A stretch of 20,000 nt of DNA from an uncultured virus (IMG/VR IMGVR_UViG_3300008050_000035) (IMGVR_UViG_3300008050_000035:54974-74973), one strand, 5' to 3'. Shown: positions 10,977-20,000, numbered from the stretch's first letter. Notes: generated by a model from the letters alone, not told the origin. Numbers and translations: made by a program.

Positions 10977-11235
10977 TGAGTAATTTTAAAATTTGGGAAA
11001 GTTTGGGTGGAACGGGCTCAAGAGTCTTGAGAAATTTAAGTAATTCCTGTTGCTCGTTATCTACGTAGTATAACTTAATACAGGCTTTACCGTATCGGCA
11101 GTGACGCCCTCGGGGGCTACTGTCAACGAAAAACTTATACCTATAACTGTGGAAACTCATGAAAACATCATGGCCGTAGCGGCGGTGAAGTCCATGAAGT
11201 AGATTGGATAATTCGTACATACGGTTATGCTGCAT
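10966..11235 (-). CDS. Hypothetical protein (89 aa, MQHNRMYELS...), first gene of the leftward unit
   Basis: First ATG in the ORF is at 11235; the upstream part of the track ORF is AT-rich repeat sequence. Confidence 0.55.
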   Translation of the reverse strand: MQHNRMYELSNLLHGLHRRYGHDVFMSFHSYRYKFFVDSSPRGRHCRYGKACIKLYYVDNEQQELLKFLKTLEPVPPKLSQILKLLNET

Positions 11236-11241
11236 ACTGGT

Positions 11242-11269
11242 AGTATAAACGCCTACGTGTACAGGGCAA
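11242..11269 (-). promoter_or_regulatory. Candidate sigma70-type promoter TTGCCC-N16-TATACT, giving a leaderless mRNA
   Basis: Minus strand -35 at 11269-11264 and -10 at 11247-11242; 6 nt separate the -10 from ATG 11235, which has no SD. Confidence 0.4.
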
Positions 11270-11274
11270 CCAAA

Positions 11275-11324
11275 TGAAATGAAAATTTCAAATACAGGAA
11301 AAGAATTGAGTGAAATGAAAATTT
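11275..11324. repeat. Direct repeat TGAAATGAAAATTT x2 in an AT-rich divergence region
   Basis: Exact 14-mers at 11275-11288 and 11311-11324; ATACAGGA also occurs twice (11292, 11348). Confidence 0.7.
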
Positions 11325-11495
11325 TGGGAATGGAAGAGTAAAAACACATACAGGACTGCAGTACCTGGTTTATTTAAGGCAGTGTAGGTAGGGTCCCTTT
11401 GTGTTCGGAGCCCACCCCGGTCTAAGTATGAGACCATTTCCTTCTTTTTTACGCACGTGGGCAATGTTGCCCATGTGTACATACCGGAGGGACAC

Positions 11496-11534
11496 ATGTG
11501 TGATCCAGAGCGGGGAGATATATTCGACATGTAA
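11496..11534 (+). CDS. Candidate 12-aa minigene MCDPERGDIFDM
   Basis: GGAGG SD 5 nt before ATG; flanked by a degenerate cassette element upstream and a full element downstream. Confidence 0.3.
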   Translation: MCDPERGDIFDM

Positions 11535-11543
11535 GTCGGGTAT

Positions 11544-11590
11544 GGGAGAGCGCAAGCTCTCCCCTCCTTTTTATGGCGTGCTGAAGCCAT
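11544..11590 (+). promoter_or_regulatory. Intergenic cassette element copy 1
   Basis: GGGAGAGC-GCAA-GCTCTCCC, CTCCTTTTT, ATGGC-N8-GCCAT. Confidence 0.8.
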
Positions 11591-12260
11591 GTGTACTGTG
11601 AGTACATGTGGTGAGCGTCGGCTGAGAAGCCTTAAGTCCTGATTACTGTGTGGTGTGTAGGCAACCAGCAGTAAGCTCTCTCCCTACACAACAATGACCC
11701 GGTATGGGGATACTCACAAAGGGCACAACCGCAAGATGTAAGACATCTGCATGTGCCTGGCAATACATACCTGCTTATGCTCCTGCAAGGAAGGAGTTAG
11801 TGAGCCCGCCACTAGGATGCGGGAGGTGACAGTACCACCGATGTACGTTAGTCAGCCTGCGACTAGGATGCAGGATAGTGTAGCCCCTACTAGGACAGGG
11901 GATGTATGAGGGAAGGTGGGGACTGCCCACGGATACCTCTGGTGTGTTGCTCACCCAGGACTGGAGCTGTACGTATGCCTAGTGCATGCGTATAGTGGCC
12001 GGATGCAACTGCTTAGGCCACTATAAGGAAGTGGTAGGTAATCTGCACCTGAAAGCAGGGACGATAGCGCTCGTACAAGCGCTAGTACACAGGTACGACC
12101 TAGTAGGACATGGGCTCAGGTAGGTAGGCATGCCTACACTGAGATGGCACTGCTACTAGGTAACATGCAAGGATAACAGTACGTCCTATACGTGCTCGCT
12201 GTGGGGTGAGATGCCCACATGTACACACTGTACAACCCGTGCACTTAAGCACATAGATGT
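11573..12260 (+). ncRNA. Candidate large structured non-coding RNA or long leader with tandem H-type pseudoknots
   Basis: No credible ORF over ~690 nt; many stems with plus-strand G-U pairs; 4-5 abutting pseudoknots with covariation at 11772-11901. Boundaries inferred. Confidence 0.65.
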
Positions 12261-12273
12261 CCTGGAGGACACC

Positions 12274-12846
12274 ATGACCAGCAACACAATCATCGAGATC
12301 GTCAGTACATTCACCACATACCTGAACACAGGTATCGCATTCATGCTAGCTACCCTAGTAGCGCTTGTGTGTGCAGGCATCGCAGAGAAGATCATGCACG
12401 CACAGAAGACGGCACAGTACAAGGCCCCCTCTGAGGAAGAGGTCTGTGAGGAAGAGGTCATCGCCTGCATAGGCCTGGAGAGCATCAGCGCTGAGGAGTA
12501 CATGGACATGGAAGATGCCTCGGTGGTGGTAGTAGAGACCGCCTATCTGACCCTGGTGGATGAGCCCGTGTACTCTGATGAGGAGTACATGGCTGAGGAA
12601 GACGCTCAGGTAGAAGAGCAGGAGATCACGCTCGAGCAGAACATGGACATGGTAGTGTGGACAGTGAGTCGGAAGATCCTGTCTGCGGTCAAGTTCGTCA
12701 AGGCTCTGGTAGAAGCACCTGCTCGTATAGCCAAGCTGGAGCAGGAGATCGCCGAGCTGAAGCAGAACAACTTCGACTTTGACTTTGACTTCTATGCTGA
12801 CGTGAGTGAAGATGAGGGCGTCGAGCAGTACAGGCGCCAAGCGTAA
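12274..12846 (+). CDS. Membrane-anchored, highly acidic protein with C-terminal coiled coil (190 aa)
   Basis: Start ATG 12274 after TGTCC-TGGA-GGACA SD hairpin; TM GIAFMLATLVALVCAGIA; Glu/Asp-rich middle; RIAKLEQEIAELKQ. Confidence 0.8.
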   Translation: MTSNTIIEIVSTFTTYLNTGIAFMLATLVALVCAGIAEKIMHAQKTAQYKAPSEEEVCEEEVIACIGLESISAEEYMDMEDASVVVVETAYLTLVDEPVYSDEEYMAEEDAQVEEQEITLEQNMDMVVWTVSRKILSAVKFVKALVEAPARIAKLEQEIAELKQNNFDFDFDFYADVSEDEGVEQYRRQA

Positions 12847-12854
12847 GGGCATTT

Positions 12855-12945
12855 GAAAGGCAGCCCACTGGAGGCTACCTTTCTTTTATGGCCTCACAAG
12901 GATATGCATTTCGCATGTTCGGGCCATACCAAAGGAAGCACAATG
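12855..12945 (+). promoter_or_regulatory. Intergenic cassette element copy 2 (expanded second hairpin)
   Basis: GAAAGGCAGCC-CACTGGA-GGCTACCTTTC, TTTT, TATGGCC (12887) pairs with GGCCATA (12922), AAGGA SD, ATG 12943. Confidence 0.85.
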
Positions 12946-13626
12946 CGCACCATCACCATGACCGACGCCGTTCTCGCCCTCATCACCGACGATGCAGACA
13001 GGGAGTTGATGTCTAGCATGAAGGACAGCGAAGCCCCTGAGGACATCATCAAGGATATGCTGACTGAGGGGTCCTACAGCCGCCTGTTCGCAGGCAACAA
13101 CCATGCAGTCGCAGAGCTGCATATCACTGACAACAACAACGCTCAGGAGAGCACCATGATCGAGACCAAGACCACCAAGACCGCCACCCTGTCCTACATG
13201 GGCATAAGCTTCGAGATCACTACCAAGATGGACAAGGCATTCGCTGACAAGACAATCACGGCTGAGGACTTCCCAAACCTGTCCAAGGGCATGCTGCTAC
13301 AGATCGCTACCTGGCAGAACGAGCACGTCAACGCTCAGGACGTGGAGACCCCTGTGGCGGAGACCCTCACCCCTCGGCAGATGTTGAGCAAAGCTTACAA
13401 CGCCCAGCTCTCGGCCAAGCAGAAGACCTGGCTGCGTGCCAACAACCGCTACAAGGGCATCCACTTCGAAGACATGGGAAAGGGTCGCTTCAAGATCCGG
13501 TTCGCCAACTTCAGCACCAAGAGCAAGAAAACCCTGGAAGGCGTGTTCCAGAAGGCTGCTGATGCCAACAACTGGTACTGCAAGGTGCAGGCATCGCACG
13601 TGTACATCAACATGCACCTCGGCTAG
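12943..13626 (+). CDS. Hypothetical protein (227 aa) with a second in-frame start at 13156
   Basis: ATG after cassette element; strong C/G-ending codon bias; acidic N-terminal and basic C-terminal parts. Confidence 0.85.
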   Translation: MRTITMTDAVLALITDDADRELMSSMKDSEAPEDIIKDMLTEGSYSRLFAGNNHAVAELHITDNNNAQESTMIETKTTKTATLSYMGISFEITTKMDKAFADKTITAEDFPNLSKGMLLQIATWQNEHVNAQDVETPVAETLTPRQMLSKAYNAQLSAKQKTWLRANNRYKGIHFEDMGKGRFKIRFANFSTKSKKTLEGVFQKAADANNWYCKVQASHVYINMHLG

Positions 13627-13638
13627 TAGCTGAACATT

Positions 13639-13706
13639 GAAAGGGCACCCACAGGAGGTGCCCTTTTTCTATGGACACTCAAGTCCATGCCTTGGAGGGC
13701 ATTATG
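13639..13706 (+). promoter_or_regulatory. Intergenic cassette element copy 3
   Basis: GAAAGGGCACC-CACAGGA-GGTGCCCTTTT, TCT, ATGGAC-ACTCAA-GTCCAT, ATGCCT-TGGA-GGGCAT, ATG 13704. Confidence 0.85.
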
Positions 13707-14030
13707 ACAACCAACAACACACTGCCTTGGCGCACAGCCGGATCTCTTCGGAACAACACAGTCAAGATCGTAGACAGGCGTGCAGCCTACGACTCAAACT
13801 GCGAGCGTGCCTGCGGCGAATGCGCGGAGTGCAATCGGGCCTGGAACAAGGCTGAAGTCTTCAAGCAAGATCGTGCTGACCTGCACATCCGCATGTGGCG
13901 TGAGCGTGGTGGGCTTATTCCCAACGCGATCGTAGGCTTTGTGCCCTTTGGGCAGAAGAGCTGTGGGTGCATAAGACATTTAGAAGATTGCATGTGTAGG
14001 ATGGTGATAGAAGGTGACATTACGTTCTAA
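13704..14030 (+). CDS. Cys-rich hypothetical protein, possibly metal-binding (108 aa)
   Basis: Start after SD hairpin; CERACGECAEC and CGCIRHLEDCMC clusters. Confidence 0.8.
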   Translation: MTTNNTLPWRTAGSLRNNTVKIVDRRAAYDSNCERACGECAECNRAWNKAEVFKQDRADLHIRMWRERGGLIPNAIVGFVPFGQKSCGCIRHLEDCMCRMVIEGDITF

Positions 14031-14035
14031 GCCTT

Positions 14036-14105
14036 GAGAAGGTAGCCCGCTGGAGGCTACCTTCTCTTTTATGGCACTTACGCCATGATCAAGGAGATCA
14101 ACATG
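14036..14105 (+). promoter_or_regulatory. Intergenic cassette element copy 4
   Basis: Perfect 12-bp GAGAAGGTAGCC-CGCTGGA-GGCTACCTTCTC, TTTT, ATGGC-ACTTAC-GCCAT, TGATC-AAGGA-GATCA, ATG 14103. Confidence 0.85.
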
Positions 14106-14396
14106 ACAAAGAACATTACCCTCGCCCTAGCCCTCACTGGTTGCGGCGATGCAACCTATGGCAAATATGAAGACTCGTTTAAGGAAGTCGACGAATCCAG
14201 AGTCCAGGTCGAAGTGCTAAGCACTCAGTGTGATTTGATAGACTTAAGCTACGATAGCACGCTAATCATAAGTGCTACCCACTGGACCAGCAACGGACTT
14301 CGAGAGCCGATAGGAGGCTGGTGGGAGGGTGAGAACGGAAACGTTCTGCTTCAAGGCTGCGAAGCCAACGTGGAGATCGTTTGGCTTGAACGGTAG
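14103..14396 (+). CDS. Putative lipoprotein (97 aa)
   Basis: MTKNITLALALTG|C: basic residue, short hydrophobic region, lipobox LTGC. Confidence 0.65.
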   Translation: MTKNITLALALTGCGDATYGKYEDSFKEVDESRVQVEVLSTQCDLIDLSYDSTLIISATHWTSNGLREPIGGWWEGENGNVLLQGCEANVEIVWLER

Positions 14397-14402
14397 GCAG
14401 TT

Positions 14403-14466
14403 GAAGGGTGGTGCAAGCCACCCTTCTCTTTTATGGCAATCAAGCCATGTCCTGGAGGACATTATG
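14403..14466 (+). promoter_or_regulatory. Intergenic cassette element copy 5
   Basis: GAAGGGTGGT-GCAA-GCCACCCTTC, TCTTTT, ATGGC-AATCAA-GCCAT, ATGTCC-TGGA-GGACAT, ATG 14464. Confidence 0.9.
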
Positions 14467-14598
14467 ACCAAGACCGATATCGCTACAACCCTCGCTGTTG
14501 GGGCATTCTTCTTCCTGTTCGTCGGGATTCCCACTGATGACGGCCTGTACTTCGGCTACTTCTGGAAGCTCGCCCTCTGGCTCAGTGAGGTGATGTAG
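14464..14598 (+). CDS. Small membrane protein (44 aa)
   Basis: ATG after SD hairpin; hydrophobic LAVGAFFFLFVGI; stop overlaps the next GTG. Confidence 0.75.
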   Translation: MTKTDIATTLAVGAFFFLFVGIPTDDGLYFGYFWKLALWLSEVM

Positions 14599-14978
14599 TG
14601 AGGAACAGCAGGTCTGTCCTGTGGTTTGCCGCAGGGTGTCTGCTGTTCATGCCTGCATTCACCCCTATGATGGTCGACGTTCAGTTGACTGTCTGGATGT
14701 TCGTGGTGGACATGATCAAGCCCAACCCAGCACTGCTCTTCGGCTCCCTGTTCTACTGGCCTGTGCTCATCGCACTTACAGGCTGGTACTGGGTGTGGAG
14801 GGCAGTACGATGGGTCTTCGGCGATGAAGGACCTCTCCCCAGGTTCTTCAAGCTGTTGGGGATAATGTGGGCTCCTGTCTATGTTATCCCCGGCATCGTC
14901 ATCATCAGTCTCCTGGGTTGGCTCATATGCTTCTACAAGGCATATGAGATCCACCTGGGGGACAAGAAGGATTCGTGA
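14598..14978 (+). CDS. Multi-pass membrane protein (126 aa)
   Basis: GAGG(T) SD, GTG start; 3-4 hydrophobic segments. Confidence 0.75.
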   Translation: MRNSRSVLWFAAGCLLFMPAFTPMMVDVQLTVWMFVVDMIKPNPALLFGSLFYWPVLIALTGWYWVWRAVRWVFGDEGPLPRFFKLLGIMWAPVYVIPGIVIISLLGWLICFYKAYEIHLGDKKDS

Positions 14979-15280
14979 GTACAAGACATGTCCGCGAGTA
15001 CTGTTCGCACTGCAGGTGTGAGCAGTGGTGCACACTTAAGGGATGGGGCCTCTACTGTGATGCGAAGGATCACTTCGTTCGTAGTAAGAGGGCCGCCAAG
15101 AGGAAGGCTCCTACATCCACAAGTATGTACAAGGATGTGCGCGGACACATTAACGATACATTCAATGGGCGTGGGACCTACACCTGGGATGAGCTGATCA
15201 TCTGGTGTACTCGCACACACTTCAATGACCTCAAAGGCTTCTGCGAGGACATGAGGGAGGTAGAATGTTCTACGTCGTGA
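14975..15280 (+). CDS. Hypothetical protein with N-terminal zinc-ribbon-like motif (101 aa)
   Basis: GTGA overlap, AAGGA SD; CSHC...YCDAKDH. Confidence 0.75.
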   Translation: MSTRHVREYCSHCRCEQWCTLKGWGLYCDAKDHFVRSKRAAKRKAPTSTSMYKDVRGHINDTFNGRGTYTWDELIIWCTRTHFNDLKGFCEDMREVECSTS

Positions 15281-15399
15281 ATCAGTACGACGAAGAGACT
15301 GACCTGAAAGCTACGAGCTGGAAGGAAGCTTACAAAGAGGTTCGGGAGATGTTCCCGCACTTCTACGGAAAGCTGAACTCAATCATCTTCAAGAGATAG
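15265..15399 (+). CDS. Small hypothetical protein (44 aa, MFYVVNQYDEETDLKATSWKEAYKEVREMFPHFYGKLNSIIFKR)
   Basis: Below the ORF-track cutoff; GGGAGGT SD just upstream; ends 5 nt before cassette copy 6. Confidence 0.75.
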   Translation: MFYVVNQYDEETDLKATSWKEAYKEVREMFPHFYGKLNSIIFKR

Positions 15400-15404
15400 C
15401 ATTG

Positions 15405-15469
15405 GAAGGGCACTAGAAGGTGCCCTTCTCTTTTATGGCAATTCCTGCCATGTCCTGGAGGACATTATG
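15405..15469 (+). promoter_or_regulatory. Intergenic cassette element copy 6
   Basis: GAAGGGCACT-AGAA-GGTGCCCTTC, TCTTTT, ATGGCA-ATTCC-TGCCAT, ATGTCC-TGGA-GGACAT, ATG 15467. Confidence 0.9.
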
Positions 15470-15742
15470 CGTAACAGTACAACAGATCGCCTCGGTGCAG
15501 AGATCACCAATCAGTGGCGTGCGTTCAAGGGCACAAAGGCAGAGTTCATGGCTCAGCTGGAAGGCGTCACTTTGGACCAGCAAGTCATTACGTACGTCAA
15601 TCCGCTGATGAAGCACATCAAGCAGCAGTTCATGCCATGGGCAGCTGGGATGGAGATCAGCTTCTACTGCACCATCGTCCGTGGCCGCAGCTTGATCAGC
15701 GTATACAGCTATGGCGACAGTGACTGGCATTGCAAGTACTGA
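15467..15742 (+). CDS. Hypothetical protein (91 aa)
   Basis: Bounded by cassette copies 6 and 7; strong SD. Confidence 0.85.
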   Translation: MRNSTTDRLGAEITNQWRAFKGTKAEFMAQLEGVTLDQQVITYVNPLMKHIKQQFMPWAAGMEISFYCTIVRGRSLISVYSYGDSDWHCKY

Positions 15743-15755
15743 GATAACATTGAGC

Positions 15756-15932
15756 GGGGGCCTTCGGGCTCCCCTCTCTTTTATGGTACTCCGCTTTGGA
15801 CCTGATGGTCCGGGACTCCGCTGTCCGAGATGACTAGAGGACCAACCATCAGGAGGGGCGTGGCTCGCGCAGCTCGCCTTCTTCAAGGATTTCGCGCACT
15901 AACGTCCAACATGCTGGAGGGCATAATTCATG
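15756..15932 (+). promoter_or_regulatory. Intergenic cassette element copy 7 with a ~147-nt structured leader before the RNA polymerase gene
   Basis: GGGGGCC-TTCG-GGCTCCC, CTCTCTTTT, ATGGT; CCTGATGGT/ACCATCAGG stem; ATGCT-GGAG-GGCAT SD hairpin; ATG 15930. Confidence 0.8.
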
Positions 15933-18900
15933 GACAGACCAACCAACGAAGAGCGCTATAACGCGTTCGCCAAGAACAACATCATCAGCAACCACATGGA
16001 CCTCGTATGGGGCATCATGGTTGGCTTCGACCTGGCACCAAGTGTCAGGACATACTGCGCAGCGCTAGGAGAGGACTTTGAAGTAGAGGCTCTCGAGCAT
16101 GACCCCATGGGTAAGCTCATCCTTAATCACGTAAGCGATCTGTGGGAGCAGCGGAAGGCCGAGAAGCTGGAGAAGAGGTGGGCCAAGGAGGTGCGGCGTG
16201 TTGCACGTCGCGCCGCATACGCTGACGCTTCGGAGATCAAGGCGAGTAGTCGTCGTGATGGCACCGTGCGATTCTCCTTCGATACTGCCATGGCCTGCAT
16301 GGGCCTCATGGCAGAAATCCTCAACTACGAGGGTGTCTCTCAAGAAGAGCCTGTGGTTCTGAATTTACTTAATCGCCTCCCCTTCGTCAAGAACGAGAAG
16401 GGTAAAGAAACTACCAGACAGCATGATGTTCCTATTAGTGAAGCTGAGAACTTCGGCACCTGTGGTTACGAGCTATACCAGCTCAAGACCCTATGGAACT
16501 CGAAGATCACCGAACTGTGGGACATCTTCGAACGTTGCCTTCCTACCGCAATTGATCGAAGCAGCTATCATCGTCGGATGCGTGCTCCACTCATCCCCGG
16601 CGGCTTCTTGGCTGCGCAGCGCGTCCGCGTCGGCGAACTGCATGTGCGTGGCAAGTCCATGCAGGCTGATGGTAGTGGGTGGTATGATCCTCACCACGAG
16701 GACATGGCTGACCTCATGGCAGAGTACGGTCCTGTCGGACTGCAGTACACTGCCGTCAACCCCATCACCGGTCACTTCTTCAAGGGTATCATATACCCAA
16801 TGGAGAGTATGAATGACTGCGGTGAAGACACTGCGGCCATCCAATTCGACCATCTGCAGGTCAAGGGCGCCAAGAAGGCTGCCCACAAGACGCTTGCCAA
16901 ACTTGATCCTCGCGGACTGCTGGCCGGCGCATTCATGCTTGACGGTGTTCACATCGGCATCATGAAGGCCAAGACCACGATCGGTAAAGTCTCGGGCTGC
17001 TTCGAGACCTTGGAGAACATTGGCCCTAACCCTGCTCACTATGAGAAGGGAAAGGGCAGTGCCAAGTACATCCGCGATAAGCTTCGTGTGGCTAAACTCA
17101 TCGCAAGTCTGACTGCTGAGTCAGTCAATGCCATTGGTGAGCTTGGCCCACAAGGCCTGCTCGGTCGTGCCACCCGTGACGATCCTCACCTGCGTCGTTT
17201 GGCAGAGTTCATCGCTCTGGCAAACGGCAAGGGAGCGGGCATCAACCCGCTCGGCATTCCGCTGCTGGCTTCTAAGCTGCGGGAGAGCTTGAGTCGTCGC
17301 ATGTGGGGTCCTGCCAATGGTGCAGGTATCGATGGCAAGTACCCGATGGTCGTGATTGACGCAACCCTGAAGCCAGGGACCTGCGTCATCGCTGGCTACA
17401 AGACCGGCACCAAGCTCGCATGCTGGCGTTTCCCCACCGTTCTCGCCCAGTCCTTGCTGGTTCTCGAGGTCGTTGGTGGCAAGCGTCATCACCGCGTGGA
17501 TGATAAGGTTGTTCGCAACCTCATATACATGAACCCGCATGACATCACGACATGTCAGCAGGGTGACGACGACGGAGATGAAGTAGGTATCTCCGATGAC
17601 CCACGAGTCATCGAGTTGTTCAATCATAAGATCGACAACGGTGTCTACCACATCGAGCCCACGTCTGAGAAGCTCGTTCACCTAGCCAGGGAGCCAAAGG
17701 GCAAGGAATATTTACGAAAGAACCCAATGGGGCCAGTTGGTCGCATCACTATCTGGCGTGCAGCTCTGCTCGCCGTTGGCGATTATCAACTGGCACGTGC
17801 CTTCAGTGTCCTCATCCAAGAGGCCATTGACATGCAGAAGAACATCGTCCGCATGACACACCCCCTAAAGGCCTCCAACCTTAACAACTGGTACAAGAAT
17901 CGTAATGGTGAGTATCACATCCACTACAAGTGCAACGGCAGTGCAAACTGTCTCTGCACCGAGCGAGTGGATGGGAAGTGTCCCAATAAGGATAGCGGCT
18001 ACCTGACGGACAACTGGCTCCAGGAAGAGCCAGGTTTCGACATGGACGTAGTTGAGGATGTCTACAAGAACGCCCTCATTAGTGCGGGTTGCAGCAGAGT
18101 CGTAAAGACCAAGGGTGGCGGGACGAAAGTCATCGCCGGCTGGCCTCTTGGCTGGCGTAACCAGGCTCGCATCATCGAGCTCGGAGACGGCAAGAAGGGT
18201 GAAAACCCTATCCGAAAGGCAGTGGCTCTAGACAACTGGAAGTCCTGGCGCGAGAAACAGGATGGTGAGTTCAGTAACTGGGTCCACGTGGCCCACGACC
18301 TGGCCATGATTCGCTGGCGCCAATGGCACGACAGCTTCAAAGTGTCAGAGGAAGTACCTACCAAGGACGTCCTCCACAAGATTCTAACTGCCCTGGGCTC
18401 CCCGCTCAAGCCACTACCAATCACGTGGCAGCAATACGCAGAGAAGTCGCACAGGAGTAATCCTGACCCCCTCCGGGTCCGTGCTGGCATCATTGCCTAT
18501 GGCGCTGATATGAAGCGGATTCGTACCGAGGGAACCAAGGATGAGGGAAACCTCACTGGTCCAGTCGACGAATCAGCGAGAATGGCTAGGATTGACAACA
18601 TCAGGGCTCACCTGGAGCTAGCGCTCAGCAACCTTAGTCCCCAAGAGCTTCTCACCGTATGGGAGAAGGAACTGACGGACTGCTGGTACTACGGTAGGCA
18701 GGGTAAGCCTAAGTGTTACACAACAGACAAGAAGTCCATTCCAGAAGGAGTGAAGTTCTACACAGCAAACAAGCCCAACTACGCCTTCATGGCCCTGTGT
18801 TCCAGACACTCGGCAATCATGAAGGTCTTGGGCATGGAAGCTTCAGAAGCCTGCAGCTGGACCAACGAGAAGCGTTTAGTGTCGTACGTGAAGTGGTGCC

Positions 18901-19202
18901 GCGCCCAACCTGACAGCTACAAGGCTCTCTCAACGATTATCCGAGGCAACAAGGGTCATCTGAGGGATGTCCACGATGAGAACGGCAAGCATCTGCATCT
19001 CACTGAGTGCAAAGAATGCACATCTCGGCTCGAAACCGCGCTGGTTCGCTCTATCCGGAGTGACCGCACGGCAGACGAACAGGAGAAGACAAAGACTCTC
19101 ATCAGCGCAATGAATAAGCTTCCACACGAAACTGTGGAAGGCACCCAGCAAGAAGAGCCTGCGTACGTAGAAGTGTACATAGATGACAATCCATACGGTT
19201 AG
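15930..19202 (+). CDS. Single-subunit two-barrel (double-psi beta-barrel) RNA polymerase, YonO-like / cellular RdRP (QDE-1)-like (1090 aa)
   Basis: Motifs in canonical order: ADGSG (aa ~246), FKG (K285), WRFP (R500), GDDDGD = DxDGD (aa 546-550, nt 17565-17579), VGRIT, QEAIDMQK (D634). Confidence 0.85.
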   Translation: MDRPTNEERYNAFAKNNIISNHMDLVWGIMVGFDLAPSVRTYCAALGEDFEVEALEHDPMGKLILNHVSDLWEQRKAEKLEKRWAKEVRRVARRAAYADASEIKASSRRDGTVRFSFDTAMACMGLMAEILNYEGVSQEEPVVLNLLNRLPFVKNEKGKETTRQHDVPISEAENFGTCGYELYQLKTLWNSKITELWDIFERCLPTAIDRSSYHRRMRAPLIPGGFLAAQRVRVGELHVRGKSMQADGSGWYDPHHEDMADLMAEYGPVGLQYTAVNPITGHFFKGIIYPMESMNDCGEDTAAIQFDHLQVKGAKKAAHKTLAKLDPRGLLAGAFMLDGVHIGIMKAKTTIGKVSGCFETLENIGPNPAHYEKGKGSAKYIRDKLRVAKLIASLTAESVNAIGELGPQGLLGRATRDDPHLRRLAEFIALANGKGAGINPLGIPLLASKLRESLSRRMWGPANGAGIDGKYPMVVIDATLKPGTCVIAGYKTGTKLACWRFPTVLAQSLLVLEVVGGKRHHRVDDKVVRNLIYMNPHDITTCQQGDDDGDEVGISDDPRVIELFNHKIDNGVYHIEPTSEKLVHLAREPKGKEYLRKNPMGPVGRITIWRAALLAVGDYQLARAFSVLIQEAIDMQKNIVRMTHPLKASNLNNWYKNRNGEYHIHYKCNGSANCLCTERVDGKCPNKDSGYLTDNWLQEEPGFDMDVVEDVYKNALISAGCSRVVKTKGGGTKVIAGWPLGWRNQARIIELGDGKKGENPIRKAVALDNWKSWREKQDGEFSNWVHVAHDLAMIRWRQWHDSFKVSEEVPTKDVLHKILTALGSPLKPLPITWQQYAEKSHRSNPDPLRVRAGIIAYGADMKRIRTEGTKDEGNLTGPVDESARMARIDNIRAHLELALSNLSPQELLTVWEKELTDCWYYGRQGKPKCYTTDKKSIPEGVKFYTANKPNYAFMALCSRHSAIMKVLGMEASEACSWTNEKRLVSYVKWCRAQPDSYKALSTIIRGNKGHLRDVHDENGKHLHLTECKECTSRLETALVRSIRSDRTADEQEKTKTLISAMNKLPHETVEGTQQEEPAYVEVYIDDNPYG

Positions 19203-19290
19203 GCGTGCGTAGCACGCCGTATTGGGCGAGTGGGTCGTGCCGCTCGTCCTCCAGCCTGAGTGTGGGCCCAAACGGGCCCCCTCTTTATTT
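19202..19290 (+). terminator. Three tandem hairpins ending in a pyrimidine/U tract after the RNAP gene (degenerate copy 8)
   Basis: GGCGTGC-GTA-GCACGCC; GGGCGAGTGG-N6-CCGCTCGTCC; GGGCCC-AAAC-GGGCCC then CCTCTTTATTT. Confidence 0.65.
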
Positions 19291-19307
19291 ACAACCAATG
19301 AGAACCA

Positions 19308-19751
19308 ATGAGAGCAACCTACGAGAAGACGTTCAACGTCATCGTAGTAGAACTCTCTGCAGAAGAGGCCGAGAAGTACTGCGCAGCAGAAATAAGTGAA
19401 AGACATATGGACCTTGAGAAGCAGGGAAACACCTACTATTACACAATTCCATGCGGGAACAGATTCTACCAAATGACTCAGCGTCAAAAGGGTGGTATTC
19501 AACCATGGGGGCCTGACTACCTTCGTCAGGCTATAAGAGCAGCCGTGGCAAACAGGTTCGTAGCCTGGGAAAGCCAAACGGGCCAAGAACAATTCAAGAA
19601 ATACAAGTCCGAGTGGAATAAAGTGTTCCAAAGTCTACTCCGGAACGTACGCTTGAAATTCCCAACGGGTCGGCACCCACGTGGCCGACTCAACAAGAGT
19701 GAGTACAAGTTTCGCGAGCAATGGCGAGATAAATACGTTTGTAGCCGATAG
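19308..19751 (+). CDS. Hypothetical basic protein (147 aa)
   Basis: ORF fills the interval between two terminator-like elements; weak SD. Confidence 0.75.
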   Translation: MRATYEKTFNVIVVELSAEEAEKYCAAEISERHMDLEKQGNTYYYTIPCGNRFYQMTQRQKGGIQPWGPDYLRQAIRAAVANRFVAWESQTGQEQFKKYKSEWNKVFQSLLRNVRLKFPTGRHPRGRLNKSEYKFREQWRDKYVCSR

Positions 19752-19763
19752 CTACAAGAATAT

Positions 19764-19812
19764 GGGGTCCGTAGGACCCCTTATTTTATGACTCAGTCCA
19801 GGAGGGAAAATG
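19764..19812 (+). promoter_or_regulatory. Intergenic cassette element copy 9 (degenerate)
   Basis: GGGGTCC-GTA-GGACCCC, TTATTTT, ATGAC..GTCC-AGGAGGG, ATG 19810. Confidence 0.7.
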
Positions 19813-20000
19813 CCCATCAAAGTCGCGCACAACCTGCACTCACCATACTCAATGACTAACTTCAAAGTCATTGAGCTTTCACCAGAAACCCTTGCTAAGC
19901 TTCTCGGCAACTTGGCAGCGAAGCACGGCTTGTATGGTCAGGCACCAAACGAAGATGTAACCATTATGGGTTACATCTTCAACAACGGCATCGCAGTTAA
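19810..20000 (+). CDS. Hypothetical protein, truncated by window edge (MPIKVAHNLHSPYSMTNFKVIELSPE...)
   Basis: AGGAGG SD; frame open to 20000. Confidence 0.75.
   Translation, partial: MPIKVAHNLHSPYSMTNFKVIELSPETLAKLLGNLAAKHGLYGQAPNEDVTIMGYIFNNGIAV

Follow-up and report, generated by a model that had tools for sequence, protein, structure and literature searches.

The closest described system to the one considered here is the early transcription of Thermus phage P23-45, in which gp96, a virion polymerase that forms one protein with the tape measure, transcribes the pre-early genes, including the gene for a second polymerase (gp64), with two motif classes steering the two enzymes and a conserved motif in the pre-early terminators (Chaban et al. 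2024, PMC10770324). According to the same report, an AT-rich motif co-localises with the virion enzyme in chromatin immunoprecipitation sequencing (ChIP-seq; PMC10770324). Its Oxford Nanopore Technologies (ONT)-cappable-seq table labels 14 of the 23 P23-45 transcription start sites (TSSs) 'AT-rich', and most of the sequences upstream of these have …TTATTCCTTTA, or something close to it, at their end (PMC10770324, Supplementary Data 1); termination sites (TTSs) lie 6-49 nucleotides (nt) before the next TSS, as in the pairs TTS 340/TSS 346 and TTS 3399/TSS 3405 (PMC10770324). Within the literature that we found, a unit of this kind is described only for P23-45 (2024). Here we analyze a comparable repeated unit in a 20,000-nt stretch of an uncultured phage (IMG/VR IMGVR_UViG_3300008050_000035, positions 54974-74973; 'the window' throughout). 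The unit consists of a GC-rich hairpin (H1), a T/C-rich run, an A(T/C)GG core and a second hairpin (H2) that begins at the core; in part of the units a third hairpin (H3) presents the Shine-Dalgarno (SD) sequence of the next gene.

We interpret these units, at a probability of about 0.62, as fused terminator-promoter cassettes of a pre-early gene array, of the P23-45 kind but with a 5'-hairpin leader instead of a leaderless start, read by a phage polymerase that is most likely delivered with the virion. H1 and the first part of the T-run would end the upstream transcript, and the T/C-rich run with the A(T/C)GG a few bases on would constitute promoter and start site. The reader would be a phage polymerase that does without sigma-70-type signals, most likely a virion-delivered two-barrel RNA polymerase (RNAP), for which a protein of 1707 amino acids (aa) is our candidate. 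Transcription would start at the A of ATGG, giving an mRNA whose 5' end is flush with H2, likely a guard against 5'-end-dependent decay, with the SD-led gene next. The last gene of the array (15930-19202) would supply a second, non-virion polymerase, which would take over at a T-run plus NTGAG behind triloop hairpins, 16-81 kb into the full genome.

Anatomy of the unit and comparison with P23-45

The window is the terminal 20 kb of a 74,973-base IMG/VR fragment. A near-identical sister record (G001; 192,537 bases, CheckV-complete) contains the window's region, and positions convert as G001 position = window position minus 3973. The + strand block of G001 runs from about 7.4 to 127.4 kb, and the - strand holds the genome's structural genes (capsid, baseplate J, terminase); the array occupies the opening 8 kb of the + block, right after the divergent intergenic region. 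All nine copies of the element reported in the preliminary description (c1 to c9, from 11544 to 19764, + strand) were recovered at their coordinates, and its H2 arms (ATGGC/GCCAT, ATGGAC/GTCCAT, ATGGCA/TGCCAT, TATGGCC/GGCCATA), its H3 arms and the 23-mer common to c5 and c6 were quoted correctly. Its statement that the element punctuates almost every transcription unit is likewise accurate, with four genes (14464-15399) having one unit in common.

H1 is a GC-rich hairpin with a stem of 7-12 base pairs (bp) and a GNRA- or UUCG-type loop (of 4 or 7 nt in the six units of the window for which it was scored), followed by a T-run. Its proposed likeness to a terminator is borne out: a terminator scan listed seven of the nine H1 (c1 and c4 to c9), a separate hairpin scan picked up that of c3, and that of c2 folds with one C-A mismatch. 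As had been described, H1 follows closely behind a stop codon, at a distance of 5-14 nt (62 nt for c8); the stop codon before c1 is present but belongs to a 12-codon mini-open reading frame (mini-ORF, 11496-11534). In c1 (11544-11590), H1 (11544-11563, GCAA loop) is followed by the T-run (11564-11572), ATGG (11573-11576) and H2 (11573-11590). In c2 (12856-12928), H1 (12856-12882) is followed by TTTTATGG (12884-12891), a long H2 (12887-12928) and the gene's ATG at 12943. The next four units have all three hairpins: c3 (13640-13702; H1 13640-13666, ATGG 13671-13674, H2 13671-13688, H3 13687-13702, gene ATG 13704), c4 (14036-14100; H1 14036-14066, ATGG 14071-14074, H2 14071-14086 with loop ACTTAC, H3 14086-14100, ATG 14103), c5 (14403-14462; H1 14403-14426, ATGG 14433-14436, H2 14433-14448 with loop AATCAA, H3 14447-14462, ATG 14464), which leads the four-gene unit ending at 15399, and c6 (15404-15465; H1 15404-15429, ATGG 15435-15438, H2 15435-15451, H3 15450-15465, gene ATG 15467). 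Ahead of the polymerase gene, c7 (15756-15929) has H1 (15756-15773, TTCG loop), ATGG (15783-15786) and a structured 144-nt leader with an H3-like hairpin (15911-15924). The polymerase stop codon is followed by three tandem hairpins (19202-19279), at 19202-19218, 19224-19249 and, as c8, 19264-19279, and then by a T-run; c9 (19764-19791) has a triloop hairpin (19764-19780), a T-run and ATGA. The ATGG attributed to the copies therefore does not extend to c8, which has none, or c9, which has ATGA.

Matches of TTTTATGG number seven in the window, six of them on the + strand within 4.2 kb (11569 to 15786), compared with an expectation of 0.47 ± 0.68 for the whole window; none of 200 shuffles reached seven. 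The whole 192,537 bases of G001 hold seven forward copies, six of them inside the same 4.2-kb array stretch. The core reads CTTTTATGG in six window units and TTTCTATGG in c3, and c5 and c6 share identical stretches of 20 and 23 nt.

A further unit, absent from the preliminary description, stands at the head of the array. This unit, P0 (11437-11478, + strand), comprises a T/C run (11437-11450), ACGC (11451-11454) and an 11-bp hairpin (11453-11478); in front of it is only a 5-bp hairpin (GGTCT 11419-11423/AGACC 11431-11435), on its 3' side are an SD and the 12-codon mini-ORF (11496-11534), and no + strand genes lie upstream. P0 overlaps a conserved box heading the + block (11383-11453), which takes in the 5-bp hairpin, is 77% identical over 71 nt in another fragment (G007) despite different flanking genes, and which may be a regulatory or entry-related site of the pre-early array. 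The G007 counterpart of P0 has a T-run, ACGACC and a hairpin before a real 81-aa gene.

One feature of the window units is accounted for by neither a terminator nor a promoter reading: the bases 5' of H1 in c2 to c7 (12850-15760) conform to (C)ATTGA(A/G)(A/G)GG in six of seven window units, and a distant relative (L024) keeps gATT there.

The correspondence with P23-45 is closest at the start motif. In the P23-45 record (GenBank EU100883), TGG follows 11 of the 14 motif matches, giving the CTTTATGG core, as in the window; the window units thus carry the P23-45 start motif, TTATTCCTTTA followed by TGG. Both phages have a T/C-rich motif ending in TTTA right before the start and then TGG, and both place a terminator hairpin and its T-run a few nt ahead of the next start. 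In both, the gene of a gp64-like non-virion two-barrel RNAP is one of an array of small genes, with a second promoter class beyond it. The differences are also clear. The ATG in P23-45 is the annotated start codon (for example of ORF75, 74, 73, 69, 68, 67, 66 and 59), so that those messages are leaderless, whereas the window's genes are SD-led and lie 25-150 nt downstream of the core, and ACGG variants occur. Unlike P23-45, the window's clade is enriched in a flush 5' hairpin H2, and the second-class motifs of the two systems are unrelated. P23-45 has a genome of 84 kb and an extremely long tail, whereas the phage here has 192 kb, and Pfam finds a baseplate J-like protein in the structural block. 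We also rejected the idea that ATGG opens a small leaderless ORF, given the ACGG variants, the SD-led real genes and the fact that the ATGG frames are out of frame with those genes.

Conservation and confinement in distant relatives

A profile scan of IMG/VR yielded ten further loci with polymerases 25-31% identical to that of the window. In every one of them the same-strand stretch upstream of the polymerase gene is filled with the unit, as a GC-rich hairpin, a T/C-rich run, (A)ATGG or ACGG, a hairpin from those bases, an SD and an ATG. We counted cores (at least five T and at least six pyrimidines per 8 nt, then A[TC]GG) over nine non-redundant loci, the near-duplicates L027 and L029 having been dropped, and found 86 upstream of the polymerase gene. 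Per kb, there are 0.5-1.7 cores upstream of the RNAP gene, 0-0.35 from that gene on and 0.06-0.23 on the opposite strand; 80 of the 86 units have T at position -3, and 80 have T or A at position -1. For the complete relatives, 7 of 8 pattern matches in G003 and 7 of 10 in G002 lie within the 3-6 kb that precede the RNAP gene (the pattern used, TTTYTAYGG, was too strict for G001 and G002, and G002 was rescanned with CTTTTAYGG). The units are confined to the small-gene array that includes the non-virion RNAP gene, and the terminators of the - strand structural block are without the core. In some relatives the core is present without an H1 that the scan detects, and in one locus (L026) the pyrimidine run from H1 to ATGG reaches about 40 nt, with TTTCT still directly before ATGG; these cases, together with the core at P0, indicate that terminator and start module are separable.

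H2 is real but not universal. The minimum free energy (MFE) of the 26 nt from the core A is -5.29 kcal/mol for the 86 units and -2.62 kcal/mol for shuffled sequence (Wilcoxon p 1.8e-10), and the first paired base lies at offset 0-2 from the core A in 62 of the 86. A strict flush H2 (at least 5 bp, at most one G-U) occurs in 37 of the 86, where 200 shuffles gave a null of 8.5 ± 2.7 and never more than 16; of 1298 A[TC]GG sites that lack a T-run, 222 have a flush hairpin. All four Watson-Crick pair types are seen at stem positions 5-7 of the 5-7-bp H2 stems, and both H1 and H2 stems differ between units by compensatory changes. The six-base loop is conserved across phages and is G-free in its common variants (AATCAA, ACTTAC, AATTAA, AATTCA and AATTAC), which suggests that more than stability is being conserved. 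One locus (L021) has H2 copies identical to c4 and c5, loops included, and the H2 of c5 is also identical in G007. A covariance model built from six near-identical H2 cores was too narrow (17 matches at E <= 1 in 356 kb, six of them the seeds), and scripted counts with shuffles were therefore used in its place; MAFFT alignments of the units put the stems out of register, and the exact H2 pattern occurs in viral contigs in just four stretches on three contigs.

These observations bear on the alternative that the elements are ordinary intrinsic terminators whose flanks look conserved through recent duplication or gene conversion. H1 followed directly by a T-run is the anatomy of an intrinsic terminator, the units within one genome are very alike, and the identical stretches of c5 and c6 are what duplication would leave. 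An intrinsic terminator leaves unexplained, however, the invariant A(T/C)GG, the extended pyrimidine run (as in L026) and H2; the core and the H2 loops AATCAA and ACTTAC recur at 25-31% polymerase identity, the changes in both stems are compensatory, and the structural-block terminators lack the core. We regard this alternative as very improbable.

Known 5'-terminal stabilizer hairpins include the phi10 leader stem-loop in transcripts of T7 RNAP and that of ompA. As H2 would, they begin no more than 2 nt from the 5' end, for phi10 that of a phage-polymerase transcript; unlike them, H2 takes in the conserved bases of the proposed start and has a loop kept across phages. This leaves room for the tentative, and in our estimate rather doubtful, proposal that H2 is more than a passive 5' cap, namely a nascent-RNA or non-template-DNA hairpin with a working part in initiation. 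Such a hairpin might, for instance, help a minimal, clamp-less virion polymerase by peeling the initial 15 nt of RNA away from the template, or it might offer a phage protein a handle. On that proposal, ATGG might, with similarly low confidence, be an ancient promoter element of a virion-polymerase lineage that extends to the Thermus phages, in which it also acts as a leaderless start codon. The start of H2 exactly at A(T/C)GG and the keeping of its loops at 25-31% polymerase identity would fit a role in initiation.

H3 places the SD in or beside its loop. It is present in c3 to c6 and also ahead of two genes, the RNAP gene (15911-15924) and the first gene (12258-12273). Its place in the originally described layout holds for these sites and fails for c1 and c2. 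In the hairpin scans of the ten distant relatives, inspected by eye and not scored systematically for it, we saw no equivalent; in G007 the H3 stem covaries (GTCC/GGAC to GTAC/GTAC). We read H3 as a local ribosome-binding-site hairpin, outside the conserved unit.

The suggestion that the elements serve as homology for cassette exchange finds some support in the same fragment. G007 resembles the window only in noncoding elements (77% identity in the P0 box, 90% in the core, H2 and H3 of c5, 91% in the H1 of c7 and 100% over a 29-mer of the long leader), and the genes between these elements differ; judged by this one fragment, exchange of cassettes has modest support.

A polymerase gene, a candidate virion polymerase and two classes of signal

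The preliminary description had placed a phage RNAP gene within the array, and the predicted structure of its product supports this. The 1090-aa ORF (15930-19202, + strand), the last of the array, has no sequence match in Pfam, PHROG or the Protein Data Bank (PDB), and tblastn gave none in 50,697 phage records; 160 relatives were found at E <= 1e-3 among 1.84 billion cluster representatives. Invariant in 37 aligned relatives are D546, D548 and D550 (…QGDDDGDxVG…) and R500-x-P502. The AlphaFold2 (AF2) model (predicted local distance difference test score, pLDDT, 86.7) matches in Foldseek the polymerases QDE-1 (E 9e-11), plant RDR2, P74 gp62 (8e-6) and P32 gp64 (1.3e-5), and a crAss-like virion polymerase at E 1.5e-3. 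On these fold matches and the invariant motifs, the modeled protein is a single-chain two-barrel RNA polymerase, of QDE-1/gp64-like fold and non-virion type.

Beyond this gene the signal behind the hairpins changes. Between 16.1 and 80.6 kb of G001 (16099-80612, + strand), 19 GC hairpins are followed by a T-run and (A/T/G)TGA(G/A), compared with five on the - strand; the GC hairpins mostly have triloops (GTA, TTA, TAA, ATA), and a further hairpin often begins at the (A/T/G)TGA(G/A) bases. The class begins in the window at c9 (19764), which is intermediate to it (T-run plus NTGAG), and carries on past the window. Downstream of the RNAP gene in four relatives (L025, L026, L027 and L029; locus positions > 13000), terminator hairpins are followed by TTGTTTC…AATAAATA and not by ATGG. 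We consider the second-class sites candidate promoters of the 1090-aa polymerase.

This change of signal is relevant to an alternative without re-initiation, in which a single promoter heads the array, the terminators are leaky, and T-run, ATGG and H2 form an endonuclease site with a 5' stabilizer. RNase E-type enzymes usually cut in A/U-rich single strand beside a stem-loop, and the T7 early transcript, the comparison for such processing, is cut by RNase III. RNase III processing hairpins of the T7 early type have a stem of about 20 bp, and such a site was rejected here, since the stems of H1 (7-12 bp) and H2 (5-7 bp) are too short. A flush H2 would shield a processed RNA equally well, and a host nuclease would account for a core that stays constant across diverged phages. 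Host processing does not, however, predict a signal that ends at the polymerase gene and is replaced there by phage-specific motifs; that the signal changes exactly at this gene, phage by phage, fits a switch of promoter class and not a host nuclease site. The core is also present at the array head (P0), and the homologous P23-45 sites are listed as primary, cap-able 5' ends (PMC10770324, Supplementary Data 1). We hold processing to be quite unlikely.

If the units are promoters, the question is which enzyme reads them. The preliminary description had suggested that the element joins a terminator to a promoter at which a phage RNAP re-initiates; this part is strengthened by a core equal to that of the P23-45 promoters and by the confinement of the unit upstream of the polymerase gene, whereas its choice of reader, the 15930-19202 protein, is probably wrong. 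That gene is the last of the array, downstream of seven units, and so cannot supply its own first message; a virion-delivered enzyme is the more likely reader.

Our candidate is encoded outside the window, in the structural block (G001 161123-166243, - strand). The family of this 1707-aa protein has 13 members at 24-81% identity with invariant D-x-D-G-D and R-x-P, and its motif DMDGDT resembles the DFDGDT of gp96. Homologs 27-29% identical were found in three of the five relatives' records searched (G002, G003 and G006, both complete ones included). There is no Pfam match, no PDB profile match and no match in the phage records; hhalign gave no similarity to the window RNAP family or to gp96 residues 1-1200, and Foldseek of the model (pLDDT 65) returned nothing at E <= 1e-3. 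Unlike gp96, with which it has no detectable sequence similarity, the protein has 1707 aa with the motif at residue 1281. The structural evidence for a polymerase, taken from this model, is only suggestive; overall we think it likely that the protein is a virion RNA polymerase. The ORFs that adjoin its gene (3005 and 1366 aa) have no Pfam match.

The same terminator and promoter could instead be served by another reader, either the 1090-aa polymerase acting at both ATGG and NTGAG, its first round being provided for in another way, or the host RNAP with an unrecognized specificity factor of phage or host. The two signals are alike (a T-run, then (A/T/G)TG(G/A)), the virion polymerase is a candidate only, and the constancy of ATGG across very diverged phage proteins fits a conserved host component. 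The position of the 1090-aa gene downstream of seven units, leaving it without a first message of its own, argues against the former enzyme. Against the host enzyme, the sites show no -35/-10 pattern and no sigma domain was found: a promoter scan of the + strand from 11270 to 16000 gave only one sigma-70-like site, within a gene at 13229, in keeping with the earlier remark that a sigma70 promoter would not fit before the next gene; a six-frame search of the genome for sigma70_r2 was blank (the control rang in 10 of 14 genomes); and among 153 G001 ORFs scanned with Pfam there was neither another RNAP family nor a sigma factor. In P23-45, moreover, the motif co-localises in ChIP-seq with the virion enzyme (PMC10770324). 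We consider a reader of either of these kinds unlikely.

Several points weigh against our reading of the units as promoters for a virion-delivered polymerase. We infer initiation and termination in the window from P23-45, a distant phage, whose ATG match may partly reflect coding and not promoter sequence, and in which H2 is not enriched (2 of 14 units, against a null of 1.4). In the relatives, strict H2 is found in only 37 of the 86 units, which are uncurated and include some probable chance matches. Even P0 has a small upstream hairpin, so H1 could be a part of the promoter and not a terminator alone. The ATGG core is constant although the candidate virion enzyme is as diverged (27-29%) as the non-virion RNAPs (25-31%, with different downstream motifs), and for such constancy a conserved host factor is the simpler explanation.

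Two analogies proposed earlier do not hold in their defining features. Phage N4 early promoters are DNA hairpins with a 5-7-bp stem and a 3-nt loop, used by a T7-like virion RNAP. The likeness lies in a virion-delivered polymerase (here a candidate) and a hairpin just upstream of the start; an N4-type hairpin promoter was nevertheless rejected, because the H1 loops are not of 3 nt, the T-run and ATGG are conserved instead of the hairpin, and the core also occurs without a strong H1. The Pfam scans of the 153 ORFs found no T7-like RNAP family (a six-frame PF00940 search was blank as well, with a control equally silent and hence uninformative). The promoter early stem-loop (PeSL) cassettes of T4-type phages combine a sigma-70-type early promoter with a stem-loop. 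They too are repeated promoter and stem-loop modules that flank small early genes and may mediate shuffling (compare G007), but the sigma-70-type promoter that defines them was not found next to the elements in the + strand scan from 11270 to 16000. An Rfam search of the window from 11000 to 20000 (E <= 1) gave no relevant match.

Neighboring features and implications

Between the ATGG of c1 and the first gene lie 705 nt (11573-12277) with no ORF of more than 52 aa in a mechanical ORF list. This stretch is strongly structured (MFE -280 kcal/mol, z -4.0) and has, within 85 nt, three hairpins with the identical loop ACTAGGA (CTAGGA at 11812, 11863 and 11890); its 29-mer at 11768-11796 is 100% identical in G007, which has a long ACTAG-rich noncoding stretch after the equivalent unit. 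The stretch may give rise to a structured pre-early RNA or form an array for protein binding. The product of the pre-early gene at 14103-14396 has no family match; by eye it begins MTKNITLALALTGCGD, which resembles a lipoprotein signal, lipobox cysteine included, and from its sequence a superinfection-exclusion or envelope factor is possible.

Elsewhere, G001 codes for a full-length EF-Tu (31366-32568; three Pfam domains, E 6e-58) and, by Pfam, for an RNA ligase-like protein (43249-44610), a CCA/poly(A)-polymerase head domain (51392-52096) and a Ro60-type vWA protein (55441-57024), which together make an RNA and translation maintenance set. Its DNA polymerase III alpha is split, with a LAGLIDADG gene between the parts. 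IMG/VR classes G003, the record behind locus L025 (147 kb, 99% complete), as a provirus, which would be unexpected in a phage with a two-polymerase program.

P23-45 is the sole phage in which the promoters of a single-chain two-barrel virion polymerase have been mapped by experiment. Essentially its start signal punctuates the first genes in a broad clade of large uncultured phages, whose version stands behind a terminator and is followed by a 5' hairpin, and whose polymerase family comprises 160 clusters at 50% identity. The comparison suggests that ATGG, besides being a start codon in P23-45, belongs to the promoter itself. The compact module of stop, restart and 5' hairpin could serve orthogonal expression systems. 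For the phages themselves, the units provide candidate promoters and terminators for an enzyme class that has hardly been studied, and a rule for spotting the pre-early (host-takeover) genes in metagenomic phage genomes.

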